Virus record (IMG/VR): IMGVR_UViG_3300033153_012477
Location: 1 to 55,436 of that record
Source of the DNA: a virus
Lineage: Duplodnaviria; Heunggongvirae; Uroviricota; Caudoviricetes
Length of the DNA stretch: 55,436 nucleotides
Strand: one strand, 5' to 3'
Shown in pieces: positions 1 through 54,998 of this stretch. How positions within the stretch are numbered: the stretch's first letter is position 1; every line of letters starts with the position of its first letter. Both the position numbers and the translations under genes were made by a program. Below the pieces are notes generated by a model. The model was not told where the DNA came from and ran no database searches. It saw only the letters and a program-made list of their open reading frames with translations.

Positions 1-31
1 ATTTACTTAATATCTTTTTCTTCTGTTTCAT
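1..31 (-). CDS. Partial CDS (MKQKKKILSK...) running off the left edge
   Basis: ATG at 31 preceded by AGGA; open to the window edge. Confidence 0.4.
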   Translation of the reverse strand, partial: MKQKKKILSK

Positions 32-107
32 AAAAATTCCTGTGTAAAAATTAAAGTTAAACTAAAATTACAAACTAAGAACTTTCATAACAAACCTCTT
101 TTTATAT

Positions 108-193
108 TGGTGGGGATGGAGAGATTCGAACTCTCAAGCCAAACTAGGCACTGGTTTCTAAAACCAGCGTGTATACCATTCCACCACATCCCC
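108..193 (-). tRNA. tRNA-Leu(TAG)
   Basis: GGGGATG acceptor, CTGGT-TTTAGAA-ACCAG anticodon arm, long variable arm, GTTCGAATC, encoded CCA. Confidence 0.95.
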
Positions 194-198
194 AATTA

Positions 199-1392
199 TT
201 AACCTTTTAAAGTAGCAATAGGTCTTAGTTTATACTTAATAGAAACCAAATCTCTTTGTTCTTCCATAACAGTATCAATATTTTTATAAGCACCTGTTGC
301 TTCATCTAAATCTTTTTCAGTTCTAATGCTATGGATGATACCAAGATCTTCCATATGCTTTATTTCTTGGGCTAGGTCTAACTCTCTTTGAGCAGCTTTA
401 CGACCTAGTTTTCTACCCGCTCCATGAGAACAGGACATAAAGGAATCTCTATTACCTAAACCTTCTACAATATAAGAAGGTGTTCCTGGAGATCCAGGGA
501 TAATACCTAACTCTCCTGCAAAAGCTTTAGTAGCTCCTTTTCGATGAACATAAACATTCTTACCATAGTGTCTCTCTAAAGACGCATAGTTGTGATGTAT
601 ATTTATCATGTCATCATTACCAAACTTATCAAAAGAGACAGCTTTATCCTCATACTTAAGCATGCAGTTTTTCACCACTTCCATAGTCTCATACATCATC
701 TTCTGTCTGTTTTTAAAAGCAAAGTCTGTAGCATAAGTCATATCTTCAAAATAAGCTAAACCTTCCATAGTATCCATAGATAAAAAAGCTAACTCTTGCT
801 TATCGTCTACAGAAGAAAAATAAAGCTTATTTATCTCTCTAGCAATCTTGTTGTAATGATCGCATATCGACATACCAAATTTTCTACTCCCTGAATGAAG
901 CATAATCCATAAATTATTTTCTTCATCCCTTTGAAATTCCAAAAAATGATTTCCCGAACCTAAAGTTCCTAACTGATAACGAGCAGGATTTATAAGTGTC
1001 TTCAAAAAATCTGAGTGAGGAAGGTTTGGCATAGCTTCTTCTGCACAAGGATTTTTGTGATTTTTACCTACACCCATAGGAACAACTCTACGAGTAACCC
1101 CCATTATTTTTTTAAGAGTATCTTTAGGTATCTCATCCTTAAAAGATGTCTTCACAGCAGTCATACCACAACCTATATCAACTCCAACAGCATTAGGTAT
1201 AACGTAGTTATCACAAGCTATAACGCCTCCTATAGGCATACCATAACCTTGATGTACGTCGGGCATTAGAGCAACATGACCATGTATAAAAGGTAAAGCT
1301 GCTAAGTTTTTAGCTTGCTCTATAGCTCCTTCTTCTGGGTTATCACACCAACACTTAATTACTTTTTTTCCATCTTCTTTAAAATATTTCAT
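199..1392 (-). CDS. rtcB: RtcB RNA ligase (2',3'-cyclic phosphate/5'-OH), embedded in the tRNA operon
   Basis: MPDVHQGYGMPIGG, VGVDIGCG, GTLGSGNHF, HSGSR, HHNYA, HRKGAT, SHGAGR motifs. Confidence 0.96.
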   Translation of the reverse strand: MKYFKEDGKKVIKCWCDNPEEGAIEQAKNLAALPFIHGHVALMPDVHQGYGMPIGGVIACDNYVIPNAVGVDIGCGMTAVKTSFKDEIPKDTLKKIMGVTRRVVPMGVGKNHKNPCAEEAMPNLPHSDFLKTLINPARYQLGTLGSGNHFLEFQRDEENNLWIMLHSGSRKFGMSICDHYNKIAREINKLYFSSVDDKQELAFLSMDTMEGLAYFEDMTYATDFAFKNRQKMMYETMEVVKNCMLKYEDKAVSFDKFGNDDMINIHHNYASLERHYGKNVYVHRKGATKAFAGELGIIPGSPGTPSYIVEGLGNRDSFMSCSHGAGRKLGRKAAQRELDLAQEIKHMEDLGIIHSIRTEKDLDEATGAYKNIDTVMEEQRDLVSIKYKLRPIATLKG

Positions 1393-1415
1393 CTCTATCT
1401 CCTTGTCTAAAAAAT

Positions 1416-1503
1416 TGGCGGAAGCGGAGAGATTCGAACTCTCGGAGGTGTTACCCTCGGATCCTTAGCAAGGACCTGGTTTAGACCGCTCACCCACGCT
1501 TCC
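1416..1503 (-). tRNA. tRNA-Ser(GCT)
   Basis: GGAAGCG acceptor, CTTGCTAA loop region, long variable arm, CCA. Confidence 0.95.
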
Positions 1504-1512
1504 GTAAAAATA

Positions 1513-1589
1513 TGGGGAGAAGGACGGGAATTGAACCCGCAACAACCAGACCCACAATCTAGCGTTCTACCAATTGAACTACCTTCTCC
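1513..1589 (-). tRNA. tRNA-His(GTG)
   Basis: Encoded G-1:C73, CTAGA-TTGTGGG-TCTGG arm, CCA. Confidence 0.95.
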
Positions 1590-1594
1590 ATAAA

Positions 1595-1672
1595 TGGCTC
1601 TGGTGGCTGGATTCGAACCAGCGACCCCCTGATTAACAGTCAGAAGCTCTAAACCAACTGAGCTACACCAGA
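1595..1672 (-). tRNA. tRNA-Asn(GTT)
   Basis: U1-A72 acceptor, TCTGA-CTGTTAA-TCAGG arm, CCA. Confidence 0.95.
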
Positions 1673-1923
1673 ACAAAATCTTTTACACTTCTCCTATCAA
1701 TATTTTTGTAACGAGGTTTTTTACCACAGTTACGTTTCCACTTATTAGCCCTTCTAGGACCATAACCACATCTTCCCATGCAGACGATACAATCAACAGA
1801 ACCGTCTCTCTCAAACAGCCTAGCAATTTTGTAGGTTCTGTTATCAGTAGTATTCTTTACTTTACTCTTGCACTTTTTCAAGCCCCATTTATTGGGAGTG
1901 CTTCCTCTGTAGGCTTTGCTCAT
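1663..1923 (-). CDS. Small basic Cys-containing protein (86 aa) inside the tRNA operon
   Basis: GGAG RBS then ATG at 1923 (the track start at 2016 lies within tRNA-Gln); CxxCxxxC motif; TAG stop inside tRNA-Asn. Confidence 0.6.
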   Translation of the reverse strand: MSKAYRGSTPNKWGLKKCKSKVKNTTDNRTYKIARLFERDGSVDCIVCMGRCGYGPRRANKWKRNCGKKPRYKNIDRRSVKDFVLV

Positions 1924-1955
1924 ACTTATCTCCGAAGTTAACACTTCCTTATATT

Positions 1956-2030
1956 TGGCAGGGGTGGAAAGATTCGAACTTTCGGTACACAGAATCAAAA
2001 TCTGCTGCCTTACCACTTGGCTACACCCCT
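1956..2030 (-). tRNA. tRNA-Gln(TTG) copy 1
   Basis: AGGGGTG/CACCCCT acceptor, GCAGA-TTTTGAT-TCTGT arm, CCA. Confidence 0.93.
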
Positions 2031-2039
2031 ATAATTAGT

Positions 2040-2115
2040 TGGCAGGGACACTGGGATTCGAACCCAGATGGACGCTGTCAAAGAGCGTAATCCTAAACCG
2101 TTGGATGATGTCCCA
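2040..2115 (-). tRNA. tRNA-Gln(TTG) copy 2
   Basis: ACGCT-CTTTGAC-AGCGT arm, U1.U72 mismatch, CCA. Confidence 0.92.
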
Positions 2116-2131
2116 TCAATTTTCATACCCC

Positions 2132-2166
2132 AAAACGCAAAAAGCCCCAAAATTAATTTGGGGCTT
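2132..2166 (-). terminator. Intrinsic terminator (candidate attenuator) between the leader ORF and the first tRNA
   Basis: AAGCCCCAAA-N5-TTTGGGGCTT stem followed by a T-rich tail (TTTTTGCGTTTT). Confidence 0.8.
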
Positions 2167-2201
2167 CTATATTTGTTTAGTTAAATTTTAAGGTATTAGT
2201 A

Positions 2202-2279
2202 CTAAACAAACCTCCCCGACACAACTGTATTCAGTTGTTGACTTAAATTTAAATGGAGATTGCTCAATACTTTTTTCAT
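2202..2279 (-). CDS. Leader peptide MKKVLSNLHLNLSQQLNTVVSGRFV (25 aa)
   Basis: GAGGA RBS; codons 5-17 are all L/S/N/H/Q, matching the downstream tRNAs. Confidence 0.8.
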   Translation of the reverse strand: MKKVLSNLHLNLSQQLNTVVSGRFV

Positions 2280-2298
2280 TAATATTTCCTCTTGATAC

Positions 2299-2327
2299 AT
2301 ACTACCGCTATATTAGCAGATTATCAA
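2299..2327 (-). promoter_or_regulatory. Sigma70-like promoter of tRNA/rtcB operon
   Basis: TTGATA-17-TAGTAT. Confidence 0.7.
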
Positions 2328-2346
2328 GTAAAAAGATTATTTATTT

Positions 2347-3333
2347 TTAAGGAGCAAAAATCTTAGAAGACATACCTGTATCAGAAGCTGTCCAGTTAAG
2401 ATTCCATAAACCAGCTACATCTAAAGAGGTAGCTGAAGCATTCTCATCTATAACTACTTCACTGCAAGTCTGACCAACTTCTCCTACCAGATCTCTAACA
2501 CACCCAATGGTTTGTTTAGCATCCCCATCGGCAGTATTTTGAATAACAGTTGTGGATGTAGCACCAAGAGCTTCAGCCACACCGCTGAAGGTAGCCTTAG
2601 CATCTACTTCCTGAAAAACAACTGAAGTAATGTTAGTTGACCAGTTTCCTTTAGCTACTGTTCTGGTACCTCTGTAATCTCCTACTGTATTATTTTGAAA
2701 AGCAACAATATAGATAAAACTGAAAAAGTTTCCAGGCTCAGTCCTAAAAGAAGTAGAGAACCTCTCAGCATCATTTAAAACACCTGTATTAACCATATAA
2801 AAATCGGCATACATTTGATTAGCATCTTCATTGTCATAGAACATATTGATTGTTCTAGTGCTACCACCTTCTTTAAAAGAGAACCATCCTGCTTTTCTTG
2901 AACAATCAAACTCAACTGTCATTTCTTTAGAACCATCAATAGATATTTCTAATCTTTTTTGATAAGAGGTTCCTTCGTTTGGAAAACTTTGAGGCTTGAT
3001 TTTAAGACTAGTTCCAAGAACCAGACTTATATTAAAAATAGTTCCATCGCCATCATATGTTCCTGATAAAGTTCCAGTTGTGGGAATGGCTGCACAAGTA
3101 GCAACGCTGTTTTGAATGAGTATCTGATCTGAGATATCTAGATAGTCATTCACAAGACCAAGCATACCCCCAAGATGTACTCCTGGTTGTAGAGAATCTC
3201 TAGTAGCAGCATCTGGAAAACCTGCAATAAAAAAGTAAGTTCTTCTAACATGATCTCTCAAATTTTCAGGAGAGATAGCAAACGAATTAAAAGAAAACAA
3301 AATTACAAAAATAGATAGTATAAATTTTTTCAG
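2347..3333 (-). CDS. Secreted hypothetical protein
   Basis: Track ORF extends in frame to CTG at 3333, placed after AGGAGG, giving signal peptide MKKFILSIFVILFSFNSFA. Confidence 0.75.
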   Translation of the reverse strand: MKKFILSIFVILFSFNSFAISPENLRDHVRRTYFFIAGFPDAATRDSLQPGVHLGGMLGLVNDYLDISDQILIQNSVATCAAIPTTGTLSGTYDGDGTIFNISLVLGTSLKIKPQSFPNEGTSYQKRLEISIDGSKEMTVEFDCSRKAGWFSFKEGGSTRTINMFYDNEDANQMYADFYMVNTGVLNDAERFSTSFRTEPGNFFSFIYIVAFQNNTVGDYRGTRTVAKGNWSTNITSVVFQEVDAKATFSGVAEALGATSTTVIQNTADGDAKQTIGCVRDLVGEVGQTCSEVVIDENASATSLDVAGLWNLNWTASDTGMSSKIFAP

Positions 3334-3343
3334 GACAGTCCTC

Positions 3344-3502
3344 CTACTTCACACATTTCTGACCATCGCAGGTCATTTCTACTCTTGGAATAAGAGAAGT
3401 GTTTGGGTTAGGTTGAGGAGTAGTTTTACTCCCAAAAGTGTACACAAGCACTATAACAGCCACTACGACTATCACAGCTACAATCGTGGAAAGAGATTTC
3501 AT
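3344..3502 (-). CDS. Small membrane protein (52 aa)
   Basis: GGAGG RBS; MKSLSTIVAVIVVVAVIVLVYTFG... with C-terminal CDGQKC. Confidence 0.65.
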   Translation of the reverse strand: MKSLSTIVAVIVVVAVIVLVYTFGSKTTPQPNPNTSLIPRVEMTCDGQKCVK

Positions 3503-3572
3503 AAATCCTCCAGTTTAATATTATTAACAGACAATGTATTTTTATTATTCATAGATTATGACCTAAATTAAA

Positions 3573-3596
3573 GAGGGTTGATTTTACCCAACCCTC
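3573..3596 (-). terminator. Intrinsic terminator-like hairpin
   Basis: GAGGGTTG-N8-CAACCCTC followed by TTTAATTT. Confidence 0.55.
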
Positions 3597-3748
3597 CGAT
3601 AAGTCTTCTGTTTTTTAAGGATAAAACAGTTGTACTTCCTAAAAACCTGCTCTCCGCTTTTATGGGTAAAAGCACCTCGGCACAGAACCTAAAACCCCTG
3701 ACTCTAAACATTTAAAAGTACCGTTCCAGTCAAGTGGCTCCAGTCGCT

Positions 3749-3784
3749 TTATATAGGCTATATAGGTCTAGGGTTAATTGTCAA
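3749..3784 (-). promoter_or_regulatory. Sigma70-like promoter overlapped by a tandem CTRTAYAG motif
   Basis: TTGACA-18-TAGCCT; TTATATAG-G-CTATATAG. Confidence 0.55.
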
Positions 3785-3791
3785 ATTAATT

Positions 3792-4094
3792 TTAGATTTC
3801 TTCGCAGATAACGGTAGCATTTCTAATGAGGACTCTTTTGCCACCAATGTCAAAAGCCACCTGTCTTTCTGAAGGTTTGATATCAAAGTTGCCACGGTAT
3901 TGTTTAATCACCTTTCCCGATAAGGAATAGACAGTACAAGATCTAGTTAGACCCCCAAGCCACTCTGATTGAAAATCCTTAATCCCTCTCTTAGTAGATT
4001 CAGGAAAGAATAAGGGTACTGTGAAATATAGAAAAAAAGGGAGAATAATTAAGACAGTCCACTTTATCAATTTCTTTTTAGTTTCTTTTTTCAT
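3792..4094 (-). CDS. Membrane-anchored hypothetical protein
   Basis: ORF with N-terminal hydrophobic helix. Confidence 0.75.
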   Translation of the reverse strand: MKKETKKKLIKWTVLIILPFFLYFTVPLFFPESTKRGIKDFQSEWLGGLTRSCTVYSLSGKVIKQYRGNFDIKPSERQVAFDIGGKRVLIRNATVICEEI

Positions 4095-4113
4095 AATTAC
4101 TCTCCATATAAAA

Positions 4114-4548
4114 CTAAGCTTTACTTGGTATTTCCACTATCTCTTCAGCTTCTTCAACTGTATCAAAGATTTTAATGTCTCTAGGAATACCTTCCCAGAT
4201 ACCGTGCTTTGTGCAGTAAGCGTGAGCTACTAACCTAGCATCCTTTTCTAGTAGGACATTAAATGTCACAGAAGAATTAGCTTTCTTACCTTGACCCCCG
4301 TTTGCTCCTGCAAAATAAGTCATCTCAGCTAACTTCGTCTCTTTGTTATAAAGAGAAATAGTGCTGATGTAGTGATCTAGATCATCTGGGTGAGTATACT
4401 TATCTCCCACTTGAACAGTTACCTTAAAAGGTACTCCCTTAACTGCTTTTCCCTTACAGTTAACAAATGGGGAATGACGATCAATTAGATCTTTCTTGGC
4501 TTCTCTTTCAACTTCATCGATGTTTTCATACTTGTGAATCTTAGGCAT
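4114..4548 (-). CDS. Superoxide reductase-like (desulfoferrodoxin/class II SORL) protein
   Basis: HSP, HPDDLDHYI and HAYCTKHGIW metal-ligand motifs. Confidence 0.8.
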   Translation of the reverse strand: MPKIHKYENIDEVEREAKKDLIDRHSPFVNCKGKAVKGVPFKVTVQVGDKYTHPDDLDHYISTISLYNKETKLAEMTYFAGANGGQGKKANSSVTFNVLLEKDARLVAHAYCTKHGIWEGIPRDIKIFDTVEEAEEIVEIPSKA

Positions 4549-4791
4549 GCACCTTCTCCTTGTATTTAATGCTCATAAAATATTTAGTGTACACAGAATA
4601 AAAAAGGCAGCTCACACCCTCCATGTTATGAAGACTATAGAGTGCTGCTACCGAACTAAAAGTAAGCGGTGTTGCTTACTAAAAGTCTAACTGTCCTCTA
4701 CCTGAGACCATACATCTAATACCAACACCTGCTAGAGAGTGGGCACATCAGGTCCTCTAAAACAGAATTAGCATATAGCTAACCCCAAAGT

Positions 4792-5070
4792 CTACTCACA
4801 AATTAAACGATATTTTTTGCAGTCCATATAGCTACTGACATAGAAACTAGAGCCAATCATTCGGACGCTTGTACGTACACCTGACATAACAGAATCAAAA
4901 CAACCCATACTAGAAGTACCTGCGTAGTCTAACTGTAAATAACATCTAGAGGCTACATAAGCGGGTAGGTCTAAAAACTGTTGTTCTAAGGTAGTGACTC
5001 TTTCTTCAAGAGTTTGCTCTTGTGCAAAACAAGCACCTGAGAGCATTAGAAATAAGATAAGTGTTTTCAT
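4792..5070 (-). CDS. Secreted hypothetical protein
   Basis: Signal peptide MKTLILFLMLSGACFA; GGAG RBS. Confidence 0.7.
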   Translation of the reverse strand: MKTLILFLMLSGACFAQEQTLEERVTTLEQQFLDLPAYVASRCYLQLDYAGTSSMGCFDSVMSGVRTSVRMIGSSFYVSSYMDCKKYRLICE

Positions 5071-5112
5071 AAAATCTCCAAAATCCTTTTCGGACATAAA
5101 TTCGACTTAAAT

Positions 5113-5580
5113 TGGTGGAGCTGGGGGTAATCGAAACCCCGTCCGAAAGCTCTTCTTAGTCCTGATCTACGTGTGTAGTCTATTTCAACCTATAGACAGG
5201 CTGTGAGTTTTGGTTGTAGGTACACTGCCCGTATCACAACTTTATTTTGAGTCGCAGCTACCATTCGACTTGGGGGTGCTGTGACCTAAACCATAGCACC
5301 CTCCACCACTTACTTTTGAGAAAAGCAAGAAAACATGGGGAAAGTGTTATAACGCCCCTCCCACGTCTGCGGTCCTTCTCCTGTTTCTTGGCTAGGACAG
5401 CCTCATGGACTCAAAGCTATTAAGCTGCTAACCTTAGGCTAGGTGCTCTTTTCGCTCTGAATGCGTCCAAAGAAACTACATTTTCGTCAGTTACTTTTGT
5501 TTGAGTCTTTTAAAGAGTCCCGACTCACCTCTACACGCACAAAACTCGTCTGCTGCCCCCGTCGAAACCAGTGCAGCCCC
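5113..5580 (-). ncRNA. ssrA: tmRNA; tag (A)DENVVSLDAFRAKRAPSLRLAA at 5420-5488
   Basis: 5' GGGGCTGCACTGGTTTCGAC, 3' CAGCTCCACCA with G3.U70, T arm GGGGT-TTCGATT-ACCCC, tag ORF after AAAAGTAACT ending LAA-TAA-TAG. Confidence 0.95.
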
Positions 5581-5734
5581 ACAAAATTTTATAAATACAT
5601 CGTAGTCTATATAAGTCTAAAAAGTCAAAATATTTTTTTAAAAACTGGACCATAGGACTGACGTACTTATCATACGCTTACAAGCACCTGTCTAGCAGTG
5701 ACCCTACGTCTTACCCAGTAAAAAACAACCTATA

Positions 5735-5947
5735 TTAATCGATTATTCCTTTTTTATGCTCAACTATATCAAAAGCTTCTACAGTGTCTTTACCCATATC
5801 AAGAAGCTCTGCATAACGCACTCTCTTCCTACGACCCCAATTTCCCATAATAGGAGCACTCTCTACAGGAATAGGCTTGATCTTATCTTCACCATAAAGT
5901 TTCTTCATCTCTTCTTCAATACCGATATGTCCATTATCGATGTTCAT
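5735..5947 (-). CDS. Hypothetical protein
   Basis: AGGAG RBS, tight packing. Confidence 0.7.
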   Translation of the reverse strand: MNIDNGHIGIEEEMKKLYGEDKIKPIPVESAPIMGNWGRRKRVRYAELLDMGKDTVEAFDIVEHKKGIID

Positions 5948-5955
5948 AAACTCTC

Positions 5956-6390
5956 CTAGTTGTTTGTTCTCTCATGAGGATTTTTAAAAGTAATTACTCT
6001 AAATTTACCTTCGTATGTTATATAAGCTGGTAACTTAAGATTCTCTTTATCAAAAATAAGATGAGCACCGTCCCTGTGGGGAAGATCTAATCTATCAGCA
6101 TACTCTTTACTCACCCGAGTACTGCTTAAAGGTATAAAATCAATATGCTTCATCATATGCCTAATTACTAGCCCATAGTCCGCATAAGCATTGTAGTCGT
6201 CTACCCTATATCTAATCTCCATACGAGGGATGGGGAGATCCAGGTTCTCTTCTTCTGATAGCTGCCTGATCTGTCTCCAGTGCCAATCGTCACTATAAGA
6301 TTGATCTTCAAGCTTTTGTTCTAGTTTATTAATTTTATATTCTGCTTCGTTTAATGAATCGTGAAGTCTTTCTTCTAGTGTCATAGTCAT
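5956..6390 (-). CDS. Hypothetical protein
   Basis: ORF overlapping its neighbour by 4 nt. Confidence 0.75.
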   Translation of the reverse strand: MTMTLEERLHDSLNEAEYKINKLEQKLEDQSYSDDWHWRQIRQLSEEENLDLPIPRMEIRYRVDDYNAYADYGLVIRHMMKHIDFIPLSSTRVSKEYADRLDLPHRDGAHLIFDKENLKLPAYITYEGKFRVITFKNPHERTNN

Positions 6391-6581
6391 AATTTAACCC
6401 TCACCTTTTTTTCACAATTAGGGCACACAATGTAGTTGTAATAATCTTTATCACCAAGGTAATCAGAAGTGTAATCTTCTTTAACCTCTATAGGAACATA
6501 GGAAAGGGTAACCCCGCACTTATGACAGATATCTTCTTTTATGACTGACTTGTGCGGTTCTTTATTAACGATATGTACCAT
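6387..6581 (-). CDS. Small zinc-ribbon protein
   Basis: CHKC...CPNC. Confidence 0.75.
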   Translation of the reverse strand: MVHIVNKEPHKSVIKEDICHKCGVTLSYVPIEVKEDYTSDYLGDKDYYNYIVCPNCEKKVRVKL

Positions 6582-6582
6582 A

Positions 6583-6819
6583 TCAACTCCTTATAAACTT
6601 GATAGACTGAGGGGGATTTAAACAAGAATCACACACGTCGTCGGCTGTCTCGATATACCAGATCCTAGTAAGATTATCTCGACCCACTTCTCTAGTACAC
6701 CAAGAACAGTTATCTTCTTTTAGAGATAAGTGAAAATGTATAAAGAATTCTTTAATCTTCTTTAGGAAAGATATAAAAAACATTATAGTCTCCATTATCG
6801 CCAGAGGTATATCCATCAA
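6583..6819 (-). CDS. Small Cys-containing hypothetical protein (start uncertain)
   Basis: CSWC...CDSC; overlaps the upstream ORF. Confidence 0.55.
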   Translation of the reverse strand: MMDIPLAIMETIMFFISFLKKIKEFFIHFHLSLKEDNCSWCTREVGRDNLTRIWYIETADDVCDSCLNPPQSIKFIRS

Positions 6820-7234
6820 AGATAAGTTCCTTAAAAGAAGAAAGTTTTTCTAGCAACTTAGGTGCTTTCGTTTTTAAATGAAAAACAAAACCCTTATTAG
6901 GAGAAGTTTCTCCCACCTCTTTTATAAGAAATCCTAGACTTACCAAATGAGCAAAAAGTTCGTCTTGTAGAAGTCTCTCTTTAGATTTGAGACAGTATAA
7001 AACTAGATAGTCATCTTCAGCATTAAGAGTATAACCGTCATAAGCCAGCTCTCCGAAGTCCTGTAGCTTCTTTAATTTTTCTTCTACGCCCTCTTCTTTA
7101 GCAACTGTTATTTCAAAAGCAGTATCATCATTAATATTTTTACTACCCTCAACAGAAAGACTGAGAGAAGATAACTCTGCTATAAGACCATTAACGCTTT
7201 TTAAAAATCTTTGCCTAGCTTTAAACTTATTCAT
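6752..7234 (-). CDS. Hypothetical protein with internal duplication
   Basis: Repeated KL..F.EL..DGYT..D motif. Confidence 0.75.
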   Translation of the reverse strand: MNKFKARQRFLKSVNGLIAELSSLSLSVEGSKNINDDTAFEITVAKEEGVEEKLKKLQDFGELAYDGYTLNAEDDYLVLYCLKSKERLLQDELFAHLVSLGFLIKEVGETSPNKGFVFHLKTKAPKLLEKLSSFKELIFDGYTSGDNGDYNVFYIFPKED

Positions 7235-7791
7235 TACTTATCTCCTTCTAGTATATTTGGATCTTCTTGTTCCTTGTAATCTTTATAATCTTCACTCTCT
7301 GCTAAAACAGGCTCATTTGTATTGACCTCAGCCTTATATTCCTCTTGGCACCATTTTACCCAATCCCCATAAGGAATACGTTGGGGGAGGAAGTGGAGAG
7401 AATAGTCTCTAGCGGCACACGCTTCAGTATCCCTTAAAAGCAGTCCTTCCCAAACAATAGTATCTTCTTTATCAAAGACAGTTAAGTATTCACCACCTCT
7501 GAGAAAAACGCTCCATTCTAAAGACTTAAACTTAGTAAGAGGTCCATCCCATTTTTTTGTGTCATTGTTAAACTCAGGTGATTCGTGCCATCCTCTATCA
7601 TCGTGTAGATTAGAGGACATCCCCTCCATACCTGTTTCAAAATAGAATTCCAAAGTACCTTTGTAGGTGTGAGTATATTCTACTTCTATCTCGCCAGTTT
7701 TCTCATCAACAACTTTATAATTAGCAGCTTTAAGATCACGACCTAAAGACATTCTCTTCATTTCTTCTGGTTTTAGTTTCCAATTAATCAT
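7234..7791 (-). CDS. Hypothetical protein
   Basis: ORF in operon context. Confidence 0.75.
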   Translation of the reverse strand: MINWKLKPEEMKRMSLGRDLKAANYKVVDEKTGEIEVEYTHTYKGTLEFYFETGMEGMSSNLHDDRGWHESPEFNNDTKKWDGPLTKFKSLEWSVFLRGGEYLTVFDKEDTIVWEGLLLRDTEACAARDYSLHFLPQRIPYGDWVKWCQEEYKAEVNTNEPVLAESEDYKDYKEQEDPNILEGDK

Positions 7792-7798
7792 GTAGCCC

Positions 7799-8080
7799 TC
7801 ACACAGTGTGTTTTGAAGTTTTTATATGTTGAGTATACTGGGTTAACCTTTGTTTACTACTCTCTAGTAAGTCTACCCAGGATAGCTTGGTCATTATCTT
7901 AAAGTATCGTTTGTCTTCTAACACATCGATGAGATCACTGCGTCCATAAGGAACCATTCTTTCCTGATACCAATACTCATGTATGAAGTAGTCTCCCTCT
8001 TCTAAATGAGAGTGACCACATGAGAAGCAGGTACTAGAATAAAATCCTGCTGAATTAGAATCACACTTCTCACATTTCAC
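7799..8080 (-). CDS. Hypothetical protein with N-terminal CxxC...CxxC
   Basis: GGAG RBS, GTG start. Confidence 0.7.
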   Translation of the reverse strand: MKCEKCDSNSAGFYSSTCFSCGHSHLEEGDYFIHEYWYQERMVPYGRSDLIDVLEDKRYFKIMTKLSWVDLLESSKQRLTQYTQHIKTSKHTV

Positions 8081-8088
8081 AATAACTC

Positions 8089-8610
8089 CTAAAATAAATA
8101 ATTCTTCTTTTCTTCTTCGATAATCCTATCTCGAACTTGGGTTAATACTTCCCCAAGCCAATTCTTCCCTCTCCAAAATCGTTTACAAGTAGCTCCAAAC
8201 TCATTTTCTCGACAACCAATGCCCCAGATAGAATCATAGGGCGAAGCCTCTGCTAACTCTGTTCCTTTGGTAGCTAATAATAACTTTTTCAACTTTTCAT
8301 TCTGAGTATACTTAAGATAGTTGCCTTCAAACATTGCTTTCTTAGCAGGGTTATCATCAGCAAATTCTCCATACCATTTTTTCTCATCAAAGTCTTTAAC
8401 AGCTCTACCGAGCTTCTTCTGTTTCTTTGGGCTTTTCTCAGCCATGATTTGATAGCGAGTTGCAGTATCACCAAAAAACAGAGCTTTTCTAGCCATATAA
8501 AATTGTTCAGTACACGAGTACTTAACACCGCAGAAATCAATGAAGTAAGCTGTGTGGAAGTTACTAAAAGGTCCCCCCCAAAAAAATGTTATCTTTTCTT
8601 TCTCACTCAT
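8089..8610 (-). CDS. NADAR (YbiA-like) family protein
   Basis: FSNF, TEQFYMARKA, KKLGR, EASPYDSIWGIG, GKNWLGEVL motifs. Confidence 0.9.
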   Translation of the reverse strand: MSEKEKITFFWGGPFSNFHTAYFIDFCGVKYSCTEQFYMARKALFFGDTATRYQIMAEKSPKKQKKLGRAVKDFDEKKWYGEFADDNPAKKAMFEGNYLKYTQNEKLKKLLLATKGTELAEASPYDSIWGIGCRENEFGATCKRFWRGKNWLGEVLTQVRDRIIEEEKKNYLF

Positions 8611-8897
8611 TAAAACAAAAACCCTTGTTCTTTCTTCTTCTTTTTTAACCTATCTGGTTTTTTAGAAAAAGTAGTCTTAGTCTCATCAACTTCTACTTTA
8701 TTTTTTTTAGTTTTCTTTATTTTATTTTCTTTATCTAAAGCGTCTTGCTTTATACCTTCTTTATATTCTTTGAGCCTTTCCTCAGATTTAAAGTACTCGT
8801 CTAAAAAGTCAGGATAACGTACATGCTTACCGTCTCTGAATATCTTGATGATATACTGATTCCAAGTCTCATTATCTTTTTTAACTCTATACTTCAA
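8610..8897 (-). CDS. Basic hypothetical protein
   Basis: ORF with overlapping start/stop junctions. Confidence 0.7.
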   Translation of the reverse strand: MKYRVKKDNETWNQYIIKIFRDGKHVRYPDFLDEYFKSEERLKEYKEGIKQDALDKENKIKKTKKNKVEVDETKTTFSKKPDRLKKKKKEQGFLF

Positions 8898-9313
8898 AAC
8901 TCATATCCTAAACTAAAGAGTGTACTCCTATTTTCCAGTATCTCTGCAATACCATAATACGCACCGTATTGCATTTTAAATCCTAAACCAAAAGTATATC
9001 CTAAGTTACTGTTTAAAGAGGCTCCTATTAAACTTACACCGTATCTTATTTTTTCTGAATTAGAAGCGTAGACAATTTTATCTCTATATATAATTTTTTC
9101 TTTATAAATTAGCTTATCCTTATAAATAACTCGATCCTGGTACACAACTTTCTCTTTAACTTCTGGAGAGCATTCAGCAATAATTGGAGAAGTGTTATTA
9201 TGCCTAGCACGATTCTCTAACTCACTATAGAGTAACCCAAAGACGTACACTGCTGATACAAGAAGTGTGGTAAATAAACCGTAAATAACTAAGGGTAGGG
9301 TTCTATCTTTCAT
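8894..9313 (-). CDS. Membrane-anchored protein with hexapeptide repeats
   Basis: N-terminal TM helix; (K/R)-(V/L/I)-(V/I)-Y repeats; C-terminal beta-strand-like ...LGYEF. Confidence 0.7.
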   Translation of the reverse strand: MKDRTLPLVIYGLFTTLLVSAVYVFGLLYSELENRARHNNTSPIIAECSPEVKEKVVYQDRVIYKDKLIYKEKIIYRDKIVYASNSEKIRYGVSLIGASLNSNLGYTFGLGFKMQYGAYYGIAEILENRSTLFSLGYEF

Positions 9314-9801
9314 ACCTTTACCACCACATTCATTGAGTAATAATTAACAGCAATAACAGGTCTATACATGTATTCTATATTTACCATTGAACGGTCTTCT
9401 TCATAGTGATCTAAAACTACGGCTATTATCTTTGCGTCTTTCTCAATATTTTTAGAAGCTTTCTCTTGTGCTTCTTCCAAAGAACCGTTACATAAAAAAG
9501 TTTTTGTTTTTAGCTCTTCTTCACCTTTAATAAACTCAATAGAATTTAACTGAGTCTTATAAGTAACTTTGTACACAGGGATCTCTCCCATTGAAATTTT
9601 AAGGTCTCTGTTGAAATCAGGAGCAGCGATTACTCTTCGATTATCTAGTTTACCTAAAACGGCTTCCATAGTTTTCTTTAAACTCTCTACGGTTACTGGA
9701 GCAATATCTTGATCTATAGAAGCTATACTGGTACTAAGCTCTCCCTTTATTAGGGAAGCAACCTCATCAGCAGCGACTTGTCTTAGGTCATCATAACTCA
9801 T
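9310..9801 (-). CDS. Hypothetical protein
   Basis: ORF in operon context. Confidence 0.72.
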   Translation of the reverse strand: MSYDDLRQVAADEVASLIKGELSTSIASIDQDIAPVTVESLKKTMEAVLGKLDNRRVIAAPDFNRDLKISMGEIPVYKVTYKTQLNSIEFIKGEEELKTKTFLCNGSLEEAQEKASKNIEKDAKIIAVVLDHYEEDRSMVNIEYMYRPVIAVNYYSMNVVVKV

Positions 9802-10096
9802 CTTTGATAAACCTCACACTATTTGGGGTTATCTCAAATAACCATGACAAACTCGTATCAAAGGCTCCTACTAGTTTACGACCTTTAGATCTTTCGCTTT
9901 CAAGCCATTCTAAAATAATTTTCTGGGATTCAGGAGTATCAACACGCATACCGCTTAACTCTGCAGGACCCTTTATAAAAGCATAATTAGAAGATCTTGC
10001 TTCAGGAGCATCTTCAAGACCTGGCATTGCTCTAGAAGATATCCTAGACATGTGTATAGAAGAACCATCTGTATAAAGAGGTACAGATATTGCCAT
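9791..10096 (-). CDS. Hypothetical protein
   Basis: GGAAGG RBS. Confidence 0.7.
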   Translation of the reverse strand: MAISVPLYTDGSSIHMSRISSRAMPGLEDAPEARSSNYAFIKGPAELSGMRVDTPESQKIILEWLESERSKGRKLVGAFDTSLSWLFEITPNSVRFIKDEL

Positions 10097-10179
10097 AAAC
10101 CTTCCTTAGTTCTCAAGCCTGTGTAAATCTATATAAGTTTATAAAAAGGATTATGGAAAAGCAAGTATATTGAGGGGTG

Positions 10180-10575
10180 CTAAAACAAAATAAATTTTAG
10201 TGCATTGCCAGCGAAGTAGGTATATTTGAGGCTCTTGTACTCTATCAGAAATGTTTCTGCCATGAATAGTTTCATCCTAAAGGTCTCTAGTTTAAGCATA
10301 GTAACATCAGTGTTTAGTTCATCGTATATCAGTTGGTATTCTTCCACTAGGGAGTCTATACGTTTACTTGACCATTTCTTTTGGTGTAGGTTACGTGGAG
10401 CGTTGACCCGCTTTTCTCTATCAAGGTATATCGTGCCCCTACAAAGTTCGTCTCCGTCTTCTGTAGCAATATGCCAGGAATCTCCATAAGTACAAGCATA
10501 CCCAGCAATTGCTCCGTCTTGGTAGGTGTAAAAGACACCCTCAACTTCAAAGTAAGGCTCTTGTTTATGATCCAT
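10180..10575 (-). CDS. Hypothetical protein
   Basis: ORF of 131 aa. Confidence 0.65.
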   Translation of the reverse strand: MDHKQEPYFEVEGVFYTYQDGAIAGYACTYGDSWHIATEDGDELCRGTIYLDREKRVNAPRNLHQKKWSSKRIDSLVEEYQLIYDELNTDVTMLKLETFRMKLFMAETFLIEYKSLKYTYFAGNALKFILF

Positions 10576-10609
10576 AAAGAACTAATAAATTAGCAAAATA
10601 TAATATATG

Positions 10610-11488
10610 TCACTTAGGTATATAATCAGAAAGATATTTTATGGATGTAATCTTAGTAACCTCTTCACCCTTACATTCATTTACACCACAAACATTATTT
10701 ATGTAACATCCTCTCATACGATCATAAGCATAATCAGTTACTCCTCTAACTAAAATTCCTTCTACAAGACCAGTTTCTTGATTGATAACTGGAGAACCTG
10801 AATTTCCACCAAAAGTATCAAGATTAGCTACCAAATAATTTACAGCACTGTTGTCACGGACAATTGCTTGATCAGCTATTTTAGTAGGGAGTCCTGAAGG
10901 ATGCCCAATCACAATCAGGGGGGTATTATTTTGAACAGTTCCCGATGTACGGACTTGTAAATAATCCCTATCAACTACAGGTCTATCAAGTTCAACAACA
11001 GCATAATCGTTATCACTTTCTCGATCTAAAACATATTCTATTACTTTACATGAATAAACCTTATCTTCTGGTATAAATTGCTCACTTTCAATTATATTTT
11101 TTTGGTTATAATCAAATACCCACTTATACATAGAACAAGTATCTAAAACAGTCATGCAGTGTCCTGCAGTAACCAATATTGTTGGAGAAATTAAAAACCC
11201 AGTACACTCTCCAACACTGTTTTGCTCTAAAAAACGAGTATCTTTACAAAAACCTCTTTGGTGCTTTAATGGAGAATAACCAAGAGTGTATCCTTTTCTC
11301 TCTTTATCATAGGTCATGTTATCAAAATCTATTTGAGCTGCAGTCGCAAGTGCCATATCAACTACTTGATTATTAGGGTATTCATTCATGTTAAAACGAT
11401 TATCCTCACCGTAGATCACCTTATCAATAGCAAATGAACTAAAAGTAATTAAAATAGGGAGTAAAAAAGTAATTAAAAATAATCTCAT
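10610..11488 (-). CDS. Secreted trypsin-like serine protease
   Basis: Signal peptide, VIYGEDNR mature N-terminus, TAGHC, NDYA, GGNSGSPV catalytic triad. Confidence 0.9.
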   Translation of the reverse strand: MRLFLITFLLPILITFSSFAIDKVIYGEDNRFNMNEYPNNQVVDMALATAAQIDFDNMTYDKERKGYTLGYSPLKHQRGFCKDTRFLEQNSVGECTGFLISPTILVTAGHCMTVLDTCSMYKWVFDYNQKNIIESEQFIPEDKVYSCKVIEYVLDRESDNDYAVVELDRPVVDRDYLQVRTSGTVQNNTPLIVIGHPSGLPTKIADQAIVRDNSAVNYLVANLDTFGGNSGSPVINQETGLVEGILVRGVTDYAYDRMRGCYINNVCGVNECKGEEVTKITSIKYLSDYIPK

Positions 11489-11607
11489 AGATAACCTCTT
11501 CCTTGTTAATTTAAAAACTACACTAAAACAGAGTTCTTTTTAGGATTCACGACAGAGGAAATATATGAAGAGATTATGTCTTTTCTATAAAATTGAAGGT
11601 TGGATAA

Positions 11608-11682
11608 TGGTAGCAGTGGAGAGAATTGAACTCTCGACCCCATCTTTATCAGAGATGTGCTCTACCCCTGAGCTACACTGCT
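11608..11682 (-). tRNA. tRNA-Ile(GAT)
   Basis: CATCT-CTGATAA-AGATG arm, CCA. Confidence 0.95.
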
Positions 11683-11689
11683 ATAATTT

Positions 11690-11821
11690 TTAAGAAGGAC
11701 GGACACACCTAACATTATTTAGGAGCCATCTATTCTTCTTATATGATCTTTTTAATAATTTTTTCCTGAGCTTAAATCTTTCTTTCTCACTTAGCTCATG
11801 AAATTGTCTTACTCTTTTCAT
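11690..11821 (-). CDS. Small basic protein (43 aa)
   Basis: MKRVRQFHELSEKERFKLRKKLL...; ATG 3 nt after the upstream stop. Confidence 0.45.
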   Translation of the reverse strand: MKRVRQFHELSEKERFKLRKKLLKRSYKKNRWLLNNVRCVRPS

Positions 11822-11823
11822 AA

Positions 11824-12051
11824 CTATTTCAATTGGTGTTTAAGTCTTCGTACTTCACTCAAAGACCTAAGATTTAATTTTTTAAGTTTCTCCATTTCAG
11901 ATAATTTATCATCGTGAAGAATTTCTTTCATTTTTTCTCTACGTTCTATTTTAGCAATAAGCTCATCTGTCACTTGAAAGTCTTCAGGATTAACAGTAAC
12001 CCCTTTATCCATATCTATTTCTTCTTTAATTAAATCTCTCTTGCTCATCAC
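11824..12051 (-). CDS. Hypothetical protein inside the Pro/Tyr/Ile tRNA operon
   Basis: AAGGAG RBS. Confidence 0.7.
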   Translation of the reverse strand: MMSKRDLIKEEIDMDKGVTVNPEDFQVTDELIAKIERREKMKEILHDDKLSEMEKLKKLNLRSLSEVRRLKHQLK

Positions 12052-12064
12052 AATCTCCTTAAAA

Positions 12065-12150
12065 TGGTGGTAGCGGAAGGATTTGAACCTTCGAACCCCG
12101 AAGAGAACAGATTTACAATCTGCATGCTTTAACCCCTTGCATACGCTACC
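12065..12150 (-). tRNA. tRNA-Tyr(GTA)
   Basis: GCAGA-TTGTAAA-TCTGT arm, long variable arm, CCA. Confidence 0.95.
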
Positions 12151-12158
12151 TAAATTTA

Positions 12159-12235
12159 TGGTCTCGGCGGCAAGATTTGAACTTGCGACCCTCTGCTCCC
12201 AAAGCAGATACCCTACCAGACTGGGCTACGCCGAG
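12159..12235 (-). tRNA. tRNA-Pro(TGG)
   Basis: CTGCT-TTGGGAG-CAG region with anticodon TGG, CTCGGCG/CGCCGAG acceptor, CCA. Confidence 0.95.
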
Positions 12236-12323
12236 ATATACTTATACAAATCTTTCGATTTATACTTTAAAAATGAATGTTTGTATTTTACGTGCCTGAT
12301 TAACGCCGACACACACTGATGTA

Positions 12324-12386
12324 TTATCCCCTGTAGGGGATATAGATCGGATAGAAAGGAATGTAGATTGTCATAAATTTTTTCAT
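12324..12386 (-). CDS. Leader peptide MKKFMTIYIPFYPIYIPYRG (20 aa)
   Basis: AGGA RBS; 11 of 12 core residues are I/Y/P, matching the downstream tRNA-Pro, -Tyr and -Ile. Confidence 0.8.
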   Translation of the reverse strand: MKKFMTIYIPFYPIYIPYRG

Positions 12387-12408
12387 AATAATTCCTACTT
12401 AGTACCCT

Positions 12409-12437
12409 ATATTAATGGAATATTAAAATTAAGTCAA
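12409..12437 (-). promoter_or_regulatory. Sigma70-like promoter of Pro/Tyr/Ile tRNA operon
   Basis: TTGACT-17-TAATAT. Confidence 0.7.
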
Positions 12438-12480
12438 CTTTTTTCTACTAATATTTTAAATAAAGTACAAGGAGGACAAC

Positions 12481-12627
12481 ATGGTAACATACACAACTAC
12501 AGCTTATTTTATTTCACCTAGTGGAAAAATGGTTAAACAAACGTATACTTTTGTGCAGGCAAATGTTGATGAAGAAGCAGAAACTGTCGCAGCAACTACC
12601 CCACATGTGGAAGTAGAAATTTCTTAA
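12481..12627 (+). CDS. Small hypothetical protein (48 aa)
   Basis: AGGAGG RBS; followed by hairpin GCCTCT-N4-AGAGGC and a T-rich tail. Confidence 0.65.
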   Translation: MVTYTTTAYFISPSGKMVKQTYTFVQANVDEEAETVAATTPHVEVEIS

Positions 12628-12638
12628 GGATGTAGCCT

Positions 12639-12803
12639 CTACCTAGAGGCTCTTCTTTTCTTTTCTTTTAAATGTATTTTATATATCCAAGTTTTCCAAT
12701 CATCCCCTAACTGATCATACACTTCTTGGATAGCTTCTAGAACACTGTTTAAGTGCTCATTAGAATAGGTCCGTACATAATCTTTCCAGAACTTAGGGTC
12801 CAT
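12639..12803 (-). CDS. Small hypothetical protein (54 aa)
   Basis: MDPKFWKDYVRTY...; GGAG RBS. Confidence 0.5.
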   Translation of the reverse strand: MDPKFWKDYVRTYSNEHLNSVLEAIQEVYDQLGDDWKTWIYKIHLKEKKRRASR

Positions 12804-12805
12804 GT

Positions 12806-13048
12806 TTACTCCAGATAAACATTAACAGAAACTTTCTCGAAATTATACTCACTAGCATAGTGATCCATGTATACTTGAGCTTTACTAGGGGTAAACAAGT
12901 AAGCTTTTTCTTTATCAACGGGTTTAGGTAGTGAAAACGTCTGGTGAGAAGTTAAAGAAACATACTTTCCGTCAGGATACTTAATTAGAAAAAAGTTCCT
13001 CTGCCACTTCACTTTTTGGTTTGATTTCTTTTGTGTCATCTTTCTCAA
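12806..13048 (-). CDS. Hypothetical protein (start uncertain)
   Basis: Track ORF. Confidence 0.55.
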   Translation of the reverse strand: MRKMTQKKSNQKVKWQRNFFLIKYPDGKYVSLTSHQTFSLPKPVDKEKAYLFTPSKAQVYMDHYASEYNFEKVSVNVYLE

Positions 13049-54588: not shown

Positions 54589-54885
54589 ATGAAAAATAAT
54601 CTTTATGTTATAATCAGGAATGACCTAACAAGATCTCAAAAAGTAGTGCAAGCTGTACACGCATCTGCAGAGTTTCTCCTACATGAGAATAGTCATGTTT
54701 GGGATAATGGCACTGTGGTTTGTTTAAAAGTTAGAGATGAGCAAGAACTTTTAAATATTGAACAAAGTTTAAAAAAGATGTCTCTACCTTATAGGAGTTT
54801 TAGGGAACCTGATACAGGAAATGATATGACAGCTTTAGCTTTAGTGGGAGAAAGGAATCTATTTAGAGATTTGACATTAGCATAA
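54589..54885 (+). CDS. Pth2-like peptidyl-tRNA hydrolase
   Basis: YVIIRNDL, QAVHA, VVCLKV, FREPD..N..TALA. Confidence 0.75.
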   Translation: MKNNLYVIIRNDLTRSQKVVQAVHASAEFLLHENSHVWDNGTVVCLKVRDEQELLNIEQSLKKMSLPYRSFREPDTGNDMTALALVGERNLFRDLTLA

Positions 54886-54922
54886 TAGAAACTGTAACCT
54901 TTATGCAATAAGCTAAACTAGT

Positions 54923-54998
54923 GCTCCTATAGCTCAGTTGGCAGAGCAGCATTTTCTAAAAATGTTTGTCGCCAGTTCGACCCTGGCTAGGAGCACCA
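54923..54998 (+). tRNA. Amber suppressor tRNA, anticodon CTA
   Basis: 76-nt cloverleaf; GCATT-TTCTAAA-AATGT places CTA at 34-36 (54956-54958); CCA end. Confidence 0.88.

Follow-up and report, generated by a model that had tools for sequence, protein, structure and literature searches.

Codon-matched leader open reading frames precede two tRNA operons of a phage, one of them with a predicted ribosome-mediated attenuator ahead of tRNA and RtcB genes

When does a phage make the transfer RNAs (tRNAs) that it encodes? Phage tRNA genes are usually viewed as constitutive supplements to codon usage or as decoys against tRNA-cleaving defences, and to our knowledge next to nothing is known of their regulation. 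The question is raised by the window analysed here, a stretch of 55,436 nucleotides (nt) that forms the first 55 kilobases (kb) of the 192.7-kb IMG/VR contig IMGVR_UViG_3300033153_012477 of a large, uncultured phage, in which two tRNA operons each begin with a very short open reading frame (ORF) whose central codons call for the amino acids of the tRNAs encoded behind it. The original prediction described for both operons a layout of promoter, ribosome-binding site, tiny ORF starting MKK and then tRNAs, and this layout was borne out in each case by ARAGORN calls, promoters and Shine-Dalgarno sequences. The best explanation of the data as a whole, which we hold to be probable, is that both ORFs act as sensors of decoding capacity and that operon 1 is governed by a three-helix attenuator. 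The leaders and the tRNA genes, the latter called by ARAGORN, are:

2327-2299, minus strand: operon 1 promoter, sigma-70-like, TTGATA-17-TAGTAT
2292-2287, minus strand: leader 1 Shine-Dalgarno sequence AGAGGA, 7 nt 5' of the ATG
2279-2202, minus strand: leader ORF 1, 25 codons, MKKVLSNLHLNLSQQLNTVVSGRFV and a stop
2267-2229, minus strand: leader 1 core, codons 5-17, all Leu, Ser, Asn, His or Gln (13 of 13)
2040-2115, minus strand: tRNA-Gln(UUG) copy 1, operon 1
1956-2030, minus strand: tRNA-Gln(UUG) copy 2, operon 1
1595-1672, minus strand: tRNA-Asn(GUU), operon 1
1513-1588, minus strand: tRNA-His(GUG), operon 1
1416-1503, minus strand: tRNA-Ser(GCU), operon 1
108-193, minus strand: tRNA-Leu(UAG), operon 1
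12437-12409, minus strand: operon 2 promoter, sigma-70-like, TTGACT-17-TAATAT, in a divergent intergenic region and kept in the related contig L020
12397-12393, minus strand: leader 2 Shine-Dalgarno sequence TAGGA, 6 nt 5' of the ATG
12386-12324, minus strand: leader ORF 2, 20 codons, MKKFMTIYIPFYPIYIPYRG and a stop
12368-12333, minus strand: leader 2 core, codons 7-18, Ile, Tyr or Pro in 11 of 12
12159-12235, minus strand: tRNA-Pro(UGG), operon 2
12065-12150, minus strand: tRNA-Tyr(GUA), operon 2
12051-11824 and 11821-11690, minus strand: two small ORFs between tRNA-Tyr and tRNA-Ile, operon 2
11608-11682, minus strand: tRNA-Ile(GAU), operon 2

Operon 1 thus runs from leader 1 through two tRNA-Gln genes, an ORF for a Cys-rich protein, tRNA-Asn, tRNA-His, tRNA-Ser and rtcB to tRNA-Leu, and operon 2 from leader 2 through tRNA-Pro, tRNA-Tyr and the two small ORFs to tRNA-Ile; because leader 2 is preceded by a divergent gene, operon 2 requires a promoter of its own. 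All 10 tRNA genes of the contig fall within the window, and the 9 elongator tRNAs, all on the minus strand, form these two groups. Relatives of both operons were found solely among metagenome contigs: megablast of positions 1-12700 against GenBank phages returned no match, and in IMG/VR neither the single-protein scan with RtcB nor DNA patterns for leader 1 and leader 2 recovered a relative. A look-up with positions 1-2400 listed no sequencing run containing this DNA.

Is the resemblance between each leader and its tRNA set an accident of composition? The six frames of the whole contig (192.7 kb) contain approximately 175,000 stop-free windows of 13 residues, of which the leader 1 core is the sole one composed purely of Leu, Ser, Asn, His and Gln (binomial probability ~2e-8), and the leader 2 core is likewise the sole 12-residue window with at least 11 Ile, Tyr or Pro residues (~9e-9). 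Every amino acid of its own tRNA set is present in each core, which contains zero residues of the other operon's set, and chance is excluded as the source of the match. The correspondence extends to codons. The Ser codons of the leader 1 core are AGC and AGU, AGY making up 34% of Ser codons across the phage genes, and all four Ile codons of leader 2 are AUY, with AUA accounting for 39% of Ile codons across the phage genes; these choices fit tRNA-Ser(GCU) and tRNA-Ile(GAU). Aligned with each other, the two leaders are alike in the promoter, the Shine-Dalgarno sequence and MKK only. An 8-mer common to both (TGTGTCGG; two occurrences against 0.3 expected) was rejected as a functional motif, as it is not kept in the homologues of leader 1.

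The ORFs could instead encode small functional peptides or go untranslated, their likeness to the tRNA sets being coincidental or a by-product of RNA structure. Leader 2 is hydrophobic and aromatic in the manner of small membrane peptides, leader 1 is partly constrained by the RNA helices described below (regions 1 and 2), and it is from sequence that we infer translation of both ORFs. Against these points stand match probabilities of about 1e-8 for each of the two runs, both unique in the contig, and the fully disjoint cores, each specific to its own set. We consider this explanation very improbable, a judgement to which the variation among homologues and the leaders of an unrelated phage also contribute.

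Homologues of leader 1 were found in six contigs, L013, L014, L016, L017, L018 and L019, and provide five distinct sequences besides that of the window (L016 repeats L014; L018 overlaps L011). L013 and L014 were reached independently through protein searches with RtcB and the small Cys-rich protein, and L016-L019 through a DNA pattern that included regions 1 and 2 of the leader RNA (with GGGGAGGTTTGTTTAG) and left region 3 and the terminator outside. The homologous peptides are:

L013: MKNLLSNLHLNLSQQLNTVALGRFV
L014: MKNLLNNLHLNQSLQHNSVKLGRFV
L017: MKKLLSNLHLNNSQQLQRVVLGRFV
L018: MKKILSNLHLNQSLQLNTVVSGRFV
L019: MKKVLNNLHLNQSLQLSSVVSGRFV

All have 25 codons, the ending GRFV before the stop and the same downstream tRNA set, and the promoter TTGAT(A/T)-17-TAnTAT and an AGGA Shine-Dalgarno sequence occur throughout. 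Across the 13 core columns, all seven extra residue states remain within the set Leu, Ser, Asn, His and Gln (S/N, L/Q/N, Q/L, L/H and N/Q/S), and the swaps of L to Q and L to H retain set membership even though they are chemically radical, whereas the columns flanking the core vary freely (V/L/I, T/S/R, V/A/K). Because core swaps stay within the set even when radical while the flanks vary, the alignment indicates that selection acts on the tRNA used and not on the leader 1 peptide. Tolerance of L to Q and L to H within the set is the opposite of the pattern expected of a functional peptide.

How could such a leader be coupled to the genes behind it? The leader 1 RNA has a predicted fold of -52.3 kcal/mol (z = -5.5 relative to shuffled sequences), and its elements are:

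2255-2271, minus strand: region 1, 5' arm of the 1:2 hairpin, over codons 4-9 and overlapping the regulatory codons
2198-2218, minus strand: region 2 (GGGGAGGUUUGUUUAGUACU), which holds the UAG stop; its alternative partners are region 1 and the combination of region 3 and the terminator CCCC
2171-2181, minus strand: region 3 (ACUAAACAAAU), antiterminator partner of region 2
2133-2168, minus strand: intrinsic terminator with a 12-base-pair stem (AGAAGCCCCAAA/UUUGGGGCUUUU), 5-nt loop and U-tract, -17.6 kcal/mol

The terminator ends 22 nt 5' of the first tRNA-Gln. The minimum-energy fold of each of the six sequences has a long hairpin between codons 4-9 and the end of the ORF, including the UAG, plus a terminator near the first tRNA, and this terminator is present in every homologue with a differing sequence. 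RNAalifold recovers both structures; the 1:2 hairpin has 16 pairs, of which 14 are paired in six of six sequences, and all changes in its 5' arm keep pairing. The GGGGAGGUUUGUUUAGU portion of region 2 is invariant across the homologues, four of which were retrieved with the pattern holding GGGGAGGTTTGTTTAG. When a modelled ribosome covers core codons 5-13, five of the six sequences pair region 2 (GGUUUGUUUAGU) with region 3, and in L014 the equilibrium fold contains another local hairpin instead. In a model of the nascent RNA, with region 1 masked and the 3' arm of the terminator yet unmade, the minimum-energy fold of all six sequences pairs region 2 with region 3 and the CCCC of the terminator 5' arm, as a helix of 2:3 pairing, an internal loop and then GGGG:CCCC. 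The upper part of this antiterminator helix comprises 4 base pairs in the window, 6-7 in L013, L017, L018 and L019, and 13 in L014. Duplex energies range from -17 to -23 kcal/mol compared with -9 ± 2.5 kcal/mol for shuffled partners, with 0-8 of 1000 shuffles as good in each of the six sequences, and the pair beside GGGG:CCCC covaries, being C-G in L018 and L019 and U-A in L013, L014 and L017.

Since the leader, a strong terminator and conserved, mutually exclusive helices occur together, we judge it likely, on this in silico support, that operon 1 including RtcB is controlled by a ribosome-mediated transcription attenuator of the trp/ilv type. Terminator prediction found none from the attenuator to the end of the contig, including the stretch between tRNA-Ser and rtcB, which agrees with the earlier proposal that RtcB belongs to the unit switched on with the tRNAs. 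An Rfam scan of positions 1-13000 (E <= 1) returned tRNAs, one transfer-messenger RNA (tmRNA) and two sub-threshold matches only, and no T-box or other leader family; a T-box riboswitch was thus rejected for the leaders for want of a covariance-model match.

From these elements we infer translation of the leader ORFs, stalling of the ribosome and the switch itself, which would operate as follows. Transcription would start at the conserved promoter, and a ribosome would load on leader 1. With fast decoding of the Leu, Ser, Asn, His and Gln codons, the ribosome would arrive at the UAG and mask region 2, the terminator would form, and the polymerase would halt 22 nt before tRNA-Gln; since the UAG lies within region 2, a ribosome completing leader 1 is expected to block the antiterminator. 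If the leader is not translated, regions 1 and 2 would pair and the terminator would again form, so that the default would be off. Slow decoding of any of these codons would stall the ribosome over region 1, leaving region 2 free to pair with region 3 and the terminator CCCC as an antiterminator. The polymerase would then continue into both tRNA-Gln genes, the gene for the Cys-rich protein, tRNA-Asn, tRNA-His, tRNA-Ser, RtcB and tRNA-Leu, and the outcome would be a supply of tRNAs and RNA ligase under negative feedback. Operon 2 would have the same kind of sensor, with Ile, Tyr and Pro codons ahead of tRNA-Pro, tRNA-Tyr and tRNA-Ile.

Several observations weigh against this reading, and they concern the codons, the family, the helices, operon 2 and the distribution of the design in turn. 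Three of the five Leu codons of leader 1 are UUR (UUG, UUA and UUA), and the contig is without a tRNA-Leu(UAA). The original claim that the cores are built from the amino acids of the downstream tRNAs stands for both cores, each unique in the contig, with these three codons as a correction at codon level. In L011 a tRNA-Leu(UAA) immediately follows tRNA-Leu(UAG), and L013 has two tRNA-Leu(UAA) genes after MKQIKKILST..., a homologue of the ORF at the contig end; the tRNA-Leu(UAA) of this phage probably lies past the contig end, with synteny to L011 and L013 as the sole basis of this placement. As to the family, four of the five distinct homologues, including L014, fit the retrieval pattern, which inflates the conservation of regions 1 and 2 and leaves region 3 and the terminator unaffected, and the identical tRNA set behind every homologue of leader 1 provides no test of covariation inside the family. 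The upper antiterminator helix of the window consists of four G-C pairs only, followed by a C.A mismatch, and at equilibrium the terminator persists alongside the lower 2:3 helix despite a modelled stalled ribosome. Equilibrium folding was rejected as a route to antitermination, because the terminator stays and only the kinetic view of the nascent RNA yields an antiterminated state. Given that the terminator wins at equilibrium, antitermination would have to be kinetic, as in the trp attenuator, where of the two structures the terminator is thermodynamically the more stable and the decision is a kinetic one.

Does operon 2 have the same read-out? Its codon match is equally strong, and judged by sequence leader 2 is as convincing a candidate sensor as leader 1. 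It recurs in L020/L022 as MKNFKNIYIPFYPIYIPVAG and a stop, ahead of tRNA-Pro and tRNA-Tyr, with promoter, Shine-Dalgarno sequence and frame kept, so that the distinct leader 2 sequences number two (that of the window and that of L020/L022); the order Tyr-ORF-Ile is found in L024 and L025. At the position of tRNA-Ile(GAU), L020 has at about 1590-1650 a tRNA-like start through the anticodon GAU that has lost the T arm and is negative in ARAGORN; its leader 2 retains the Ile codons. Two hairpins are present in the leader region of operon 2:

12325-12342, minus strand: hairpin H1 (AUCCCC-UACA-GGGGAU), spanning the final codons and stop of leader 2; kept in L020 with a changed loop
12244-12265, minus strand: hairpin H3, AU-rich with a GAAA loop, just 5' of tRNA-Pro; kept in L020

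H3 has no U-tract in the window and a U-rich tail in L020, and is not a canonical terminator. Between 12323 and 12236 no hairpin is both G+C-rich and followed by a U-tract, so that operon 2 has no recognisable intrinsic terminator, and no helix switches partner when a ribosome is modelled on the leader 2 core. The original prediction of attenuation is thus supported for operon 1, where leader, terminator and exclusive helices are present, and not shown for operon 2, for which neither the window nor the stalled-ribosome folds contain a switchable terminator.

One explanation is that the leaders sense decoding speed but that the output, at least in operon 2, is RNA stability or processing, through shielding of the 5' end or access of RNase P or RNase E. 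A precedent is the ermC mRNA of Bacillus subtilis, which is stabilised by erythromycin-stalled ribosomes near its 5' end. Operon 2 would suit such an output, since a strong promoter and a matched leader with its Shine-Dalgarno sequence are present and a terminator and a switching helix are not, and a Gram-positive-like host would be in keeping with the low G+C content and the strength of the Shine-Dalgarno sequences. Furthermore, the 59 nt 3' of the leader 2 stop (12266-12323, minus strand) are ~95% identical between the window and L020 compared with ~84% for the ORF itself, which suggests a conserved RNA element; this segment may alternatively be a second promoter (TACAAA-N16-TATAAA). However, two distinct leader 2 sequences give this conservation little power, no nuclease site or stabiliser element is recognisable from the sequence, and at operon 1 the conserved, covarying terminator/antiterminator switch makes such an output unneeded. 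We regard it as an unlikely account overall. If leader 2 is a sensor, a stall may act by stabilising the RNA or altering its processing, through a stop that depends on a factor, or through a weak terminator of non-canonical type.

How widespread is the design? A scoring routine took the best ORF window ahead of each tRNA block and compared it with the amino-acid set of that block, using random sets as control. The leaders of the window scored 2e-8 and 8e-9 and the relatives of leader 1 from 6e-6 to 1e-9. Also counting against the sensor reading, the best of 35 tRNA block starts in 80 RtcB-bearing IMG/VR contigs scored 2e-3, no better than random sets, and L007, whose RtcB is 75% identical to that of the window, has single tRNAs without leaders. 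Because the 35 block starts score like random sets, matched leaders are not general to phage tRNA genes, and the scoring method does not invent the design. Caulobacter phage CcrRogue (L031, JX100814.1), which is cultured and unrelated, carries a pair of leaders, each fitting a different tRNA set:

2746-2883: gp083 (MFALSHLSLSTKAASPATLSLALLATAAKPSTKPTTSASHSTETH), annotated as hypothetical, ahead of Pro, Pro, Thr, Lys, Lys, three Leu, His and Ala tRNAs
4650-4745: an unannotated ORF with the core QFVQIQVV, followed by a terminator, ahead of Phe, Val, Ile, Ile, Val, Gln and Gln tRNAs

In the four leader/set pairs of the window and CcrRogue, each core fits its own tRNA set far better than any other, and the recurrence of the same logic with other amino acids speaks against a functional peptide or coincidence. 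The RtcB neighbourhood of CcrRogue contains no tRNAs, the tRNA array lying elsewhere in the genome. For the covariation of leader and tRNA content that had been proposed as a check among relatives, the leader 1 family, which shares a single tRNA set, offers no test; the CcrRogue pairs, from an unrelated phage, match their own sets.

What would such sensors be for? The genes within and between the operons are:

199-1392, minus strand: RtcB RNA ligase, 397 amino acids, inside operon 1 (Pfam PF01139, full length, E = 1.5e-108)
1663-1923, minus strand: small basic Cys-rich protein MSKAYRGS..., 86 amino acids (CxxC...CG...NCG), inside operon 1
4114-4548, minus strand: desulfoferrodoxin-type protein between the operons (E = 1e-23)
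5113-5580, minus strand: tmRNA between the operons (Rfam RF00023, 127.5 bits, E = 3.5e-50, full model; uncalled by ARAGORN)
8089-8610, minus strand: NADAR domain protein between the operons (E = 3e-43)

In an alignment of 15 homologues, every invariant column, the SCSHGAGR motif among them, is kept in the RtcB of the window, and RtcB lies within the same tRNA operon also in the relatives L011, L013 and L014. These features could be explained by a counter-defence alarm of the kind originally predicted, a sub-case of the best explanation and compatible with it, in which host anticodon nucleases cut tRNAs, the leader stalls, and the phage responds with nuclease-resistant tRNAs and with RtcB to reseal 2',3'-cyclic-phosphate/5'-OH ends. 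RtcB is embedded in the operon with the predicted attenuator here and in these three relatives, a tmRNA and a NADAR domain protein lie between the operons, and L020 adds a Tpt1-type RNA 2'-phosphotransferase (PF01885). Phage tRNAs have been reported to counter tRNA-cleaving defences, and the His, Asn and Tyr tRNAs are targets of colicin E5. Nevertheless, no nuclease, target or resistance feature of the phage tRNAs was identified, codon-supply homeostasis during host shut-off accounts equally for the circuit, and in L007 RtcB stands apart from the tRNAs, which are leaderless. The alarm is a possibility that we put forward tentatively. We are similarly doubtful of a still wider proposal, in which phages would hold an undescribed class of tRNA-codon leader sensors that detect tRNA loss, whether by anticodon nucleases or host shut-off, and answer with replacement tRNAs and RtcB on need, the class having arisen independently in a low-G+C lineage and in phiCbK-like Caulobacter phages.

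The Cys-rich protein matches no Pfam or PHROG family; its homologues (L011 184-450; L013 7079-7348; L014 3595-3861) are 60-94% identical, and in four of four contigs examined it sits just 3' of tRNA-Gln within the tRNA operon. In relatives (L013 7609-8061), a 150-amino-acid HisRS-like fragment (PF13393) lies between tRNA-Asn and tRNA-His. The RtcB gene of L014 (4535-6730) encodes 731 amino acids, for which an inserted element is a possible cause. NADAR is also found near the tRNA operons of L013, L014 and L020.

The contig as a whole has a G+C content of 35.7% and a CheckV completeness of 44%. It ends 107 nt past tRNA-Leu(UAG), within the ORF MKQKKKILSK..., and immediately 3' of this tRNA, at 68-88 on the minus strand, is a 6-codon mini-ORF (MKVLSL before the stop) with a Shine-Dalgarno sequence. 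L013 has a mini-ORF (MKVAC before the stop) in the equivalent spot, at about 9703-9720. Near the other end of the window, the stretch 54589-54998 (plus strand) contains an ORF of 98 amino acids that matches the phage hydrolase families phrog_3668 and phrog_1866 and by eye resembles a PTH2-type peptidyl-tRNA hydrolase, and, 37 nt after it, a tRNA with the anticodon CUA (amber suppressor; ARAGORN label Pyl). No leader ORF lies in front of this tRNA. Stop-codon recoding, which the tRNA(CUA) had prompted us to consider, was rejected: the standard code gives 93% long-ORF coverage, and TAG terminates 31 of 155 long ORFs.

If the sensor reading is true, a virus gauges the decoding capacity of the cell for individual codons and replenishes it by feedback, with an RNA repair ligase in the same circuit, and the textbook attenuation of amino-acid operons extends to new controlled genes and to viruses. 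Sequence alone would then reveal the groups of tRNAs that function as one unit for a phage, and the leaders would offer synthetic biology compact, programmable sensors of tRNA availability. A search of the full-text literature, with many subscription journals outside its scope, found no leader peptide or attenuator described ahead of phage or bacterial tRNA genes; the original prediction had likewise been unaware of one for phage tRNA arrays.

Among known systems, the ilvGMEDA leader ilvL (Ile/Val/Leu) and thrL (Thr/Ile) resemble operon 1 in having a short promoter-proximal ORF in which codons for several amino acids follow one another, as well as 1:2, 2:3 and 3:4 helices, an intrinsic terminator and a stop placed to prevent the antiterminator. 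They control biosynthetic enzymes, whereas the leader of operon 1 would control tRNAs and an RNA ligase, as feedback on decoding capacity; they are also enterobacterial, whereas the element of operon 1 is phage-encoded and without sequence relationship to them. The switch logic is common to trpL and hisL, but these sense one amino acid, whereas the phage leaders would sense five or three, equal to the tRNA set, and are without tandem repeats of a single codon. In pheM (pheST), as proposed for the phage leaders, an attenuator governs a component of the translation machinery, although it is chromosomal, senses one amino acid and controls a synthetase rather than tRNAs. T-box riboswitches of low-G+C bacteria, like the phage leaders as we read them, sense tRNA status and place a terminator before translation genes, but they bind uncharged tRNA directly and have no ORF, whereas the phage leaders use one. 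Finally, an RNA ligase is co-located with tRNA genes, as in operon 1, in the repair sets T4 Pnkp/Rnl1 (directed against PrrC) and rsr-yrlBA-rtcBA. We know of no codon-matched leader peptide that controls either of these sets, rtcBA being regulated by RtcR, and operon 1 differs from them in that RtcB lies inside a tRNA operon gated by a predicted attenuator. The mechanism is classical; what is new lies in the controlled genes (an RNA ligase and tRNAs), in feedback that acts on decoding capacity itself and in the viral setting.

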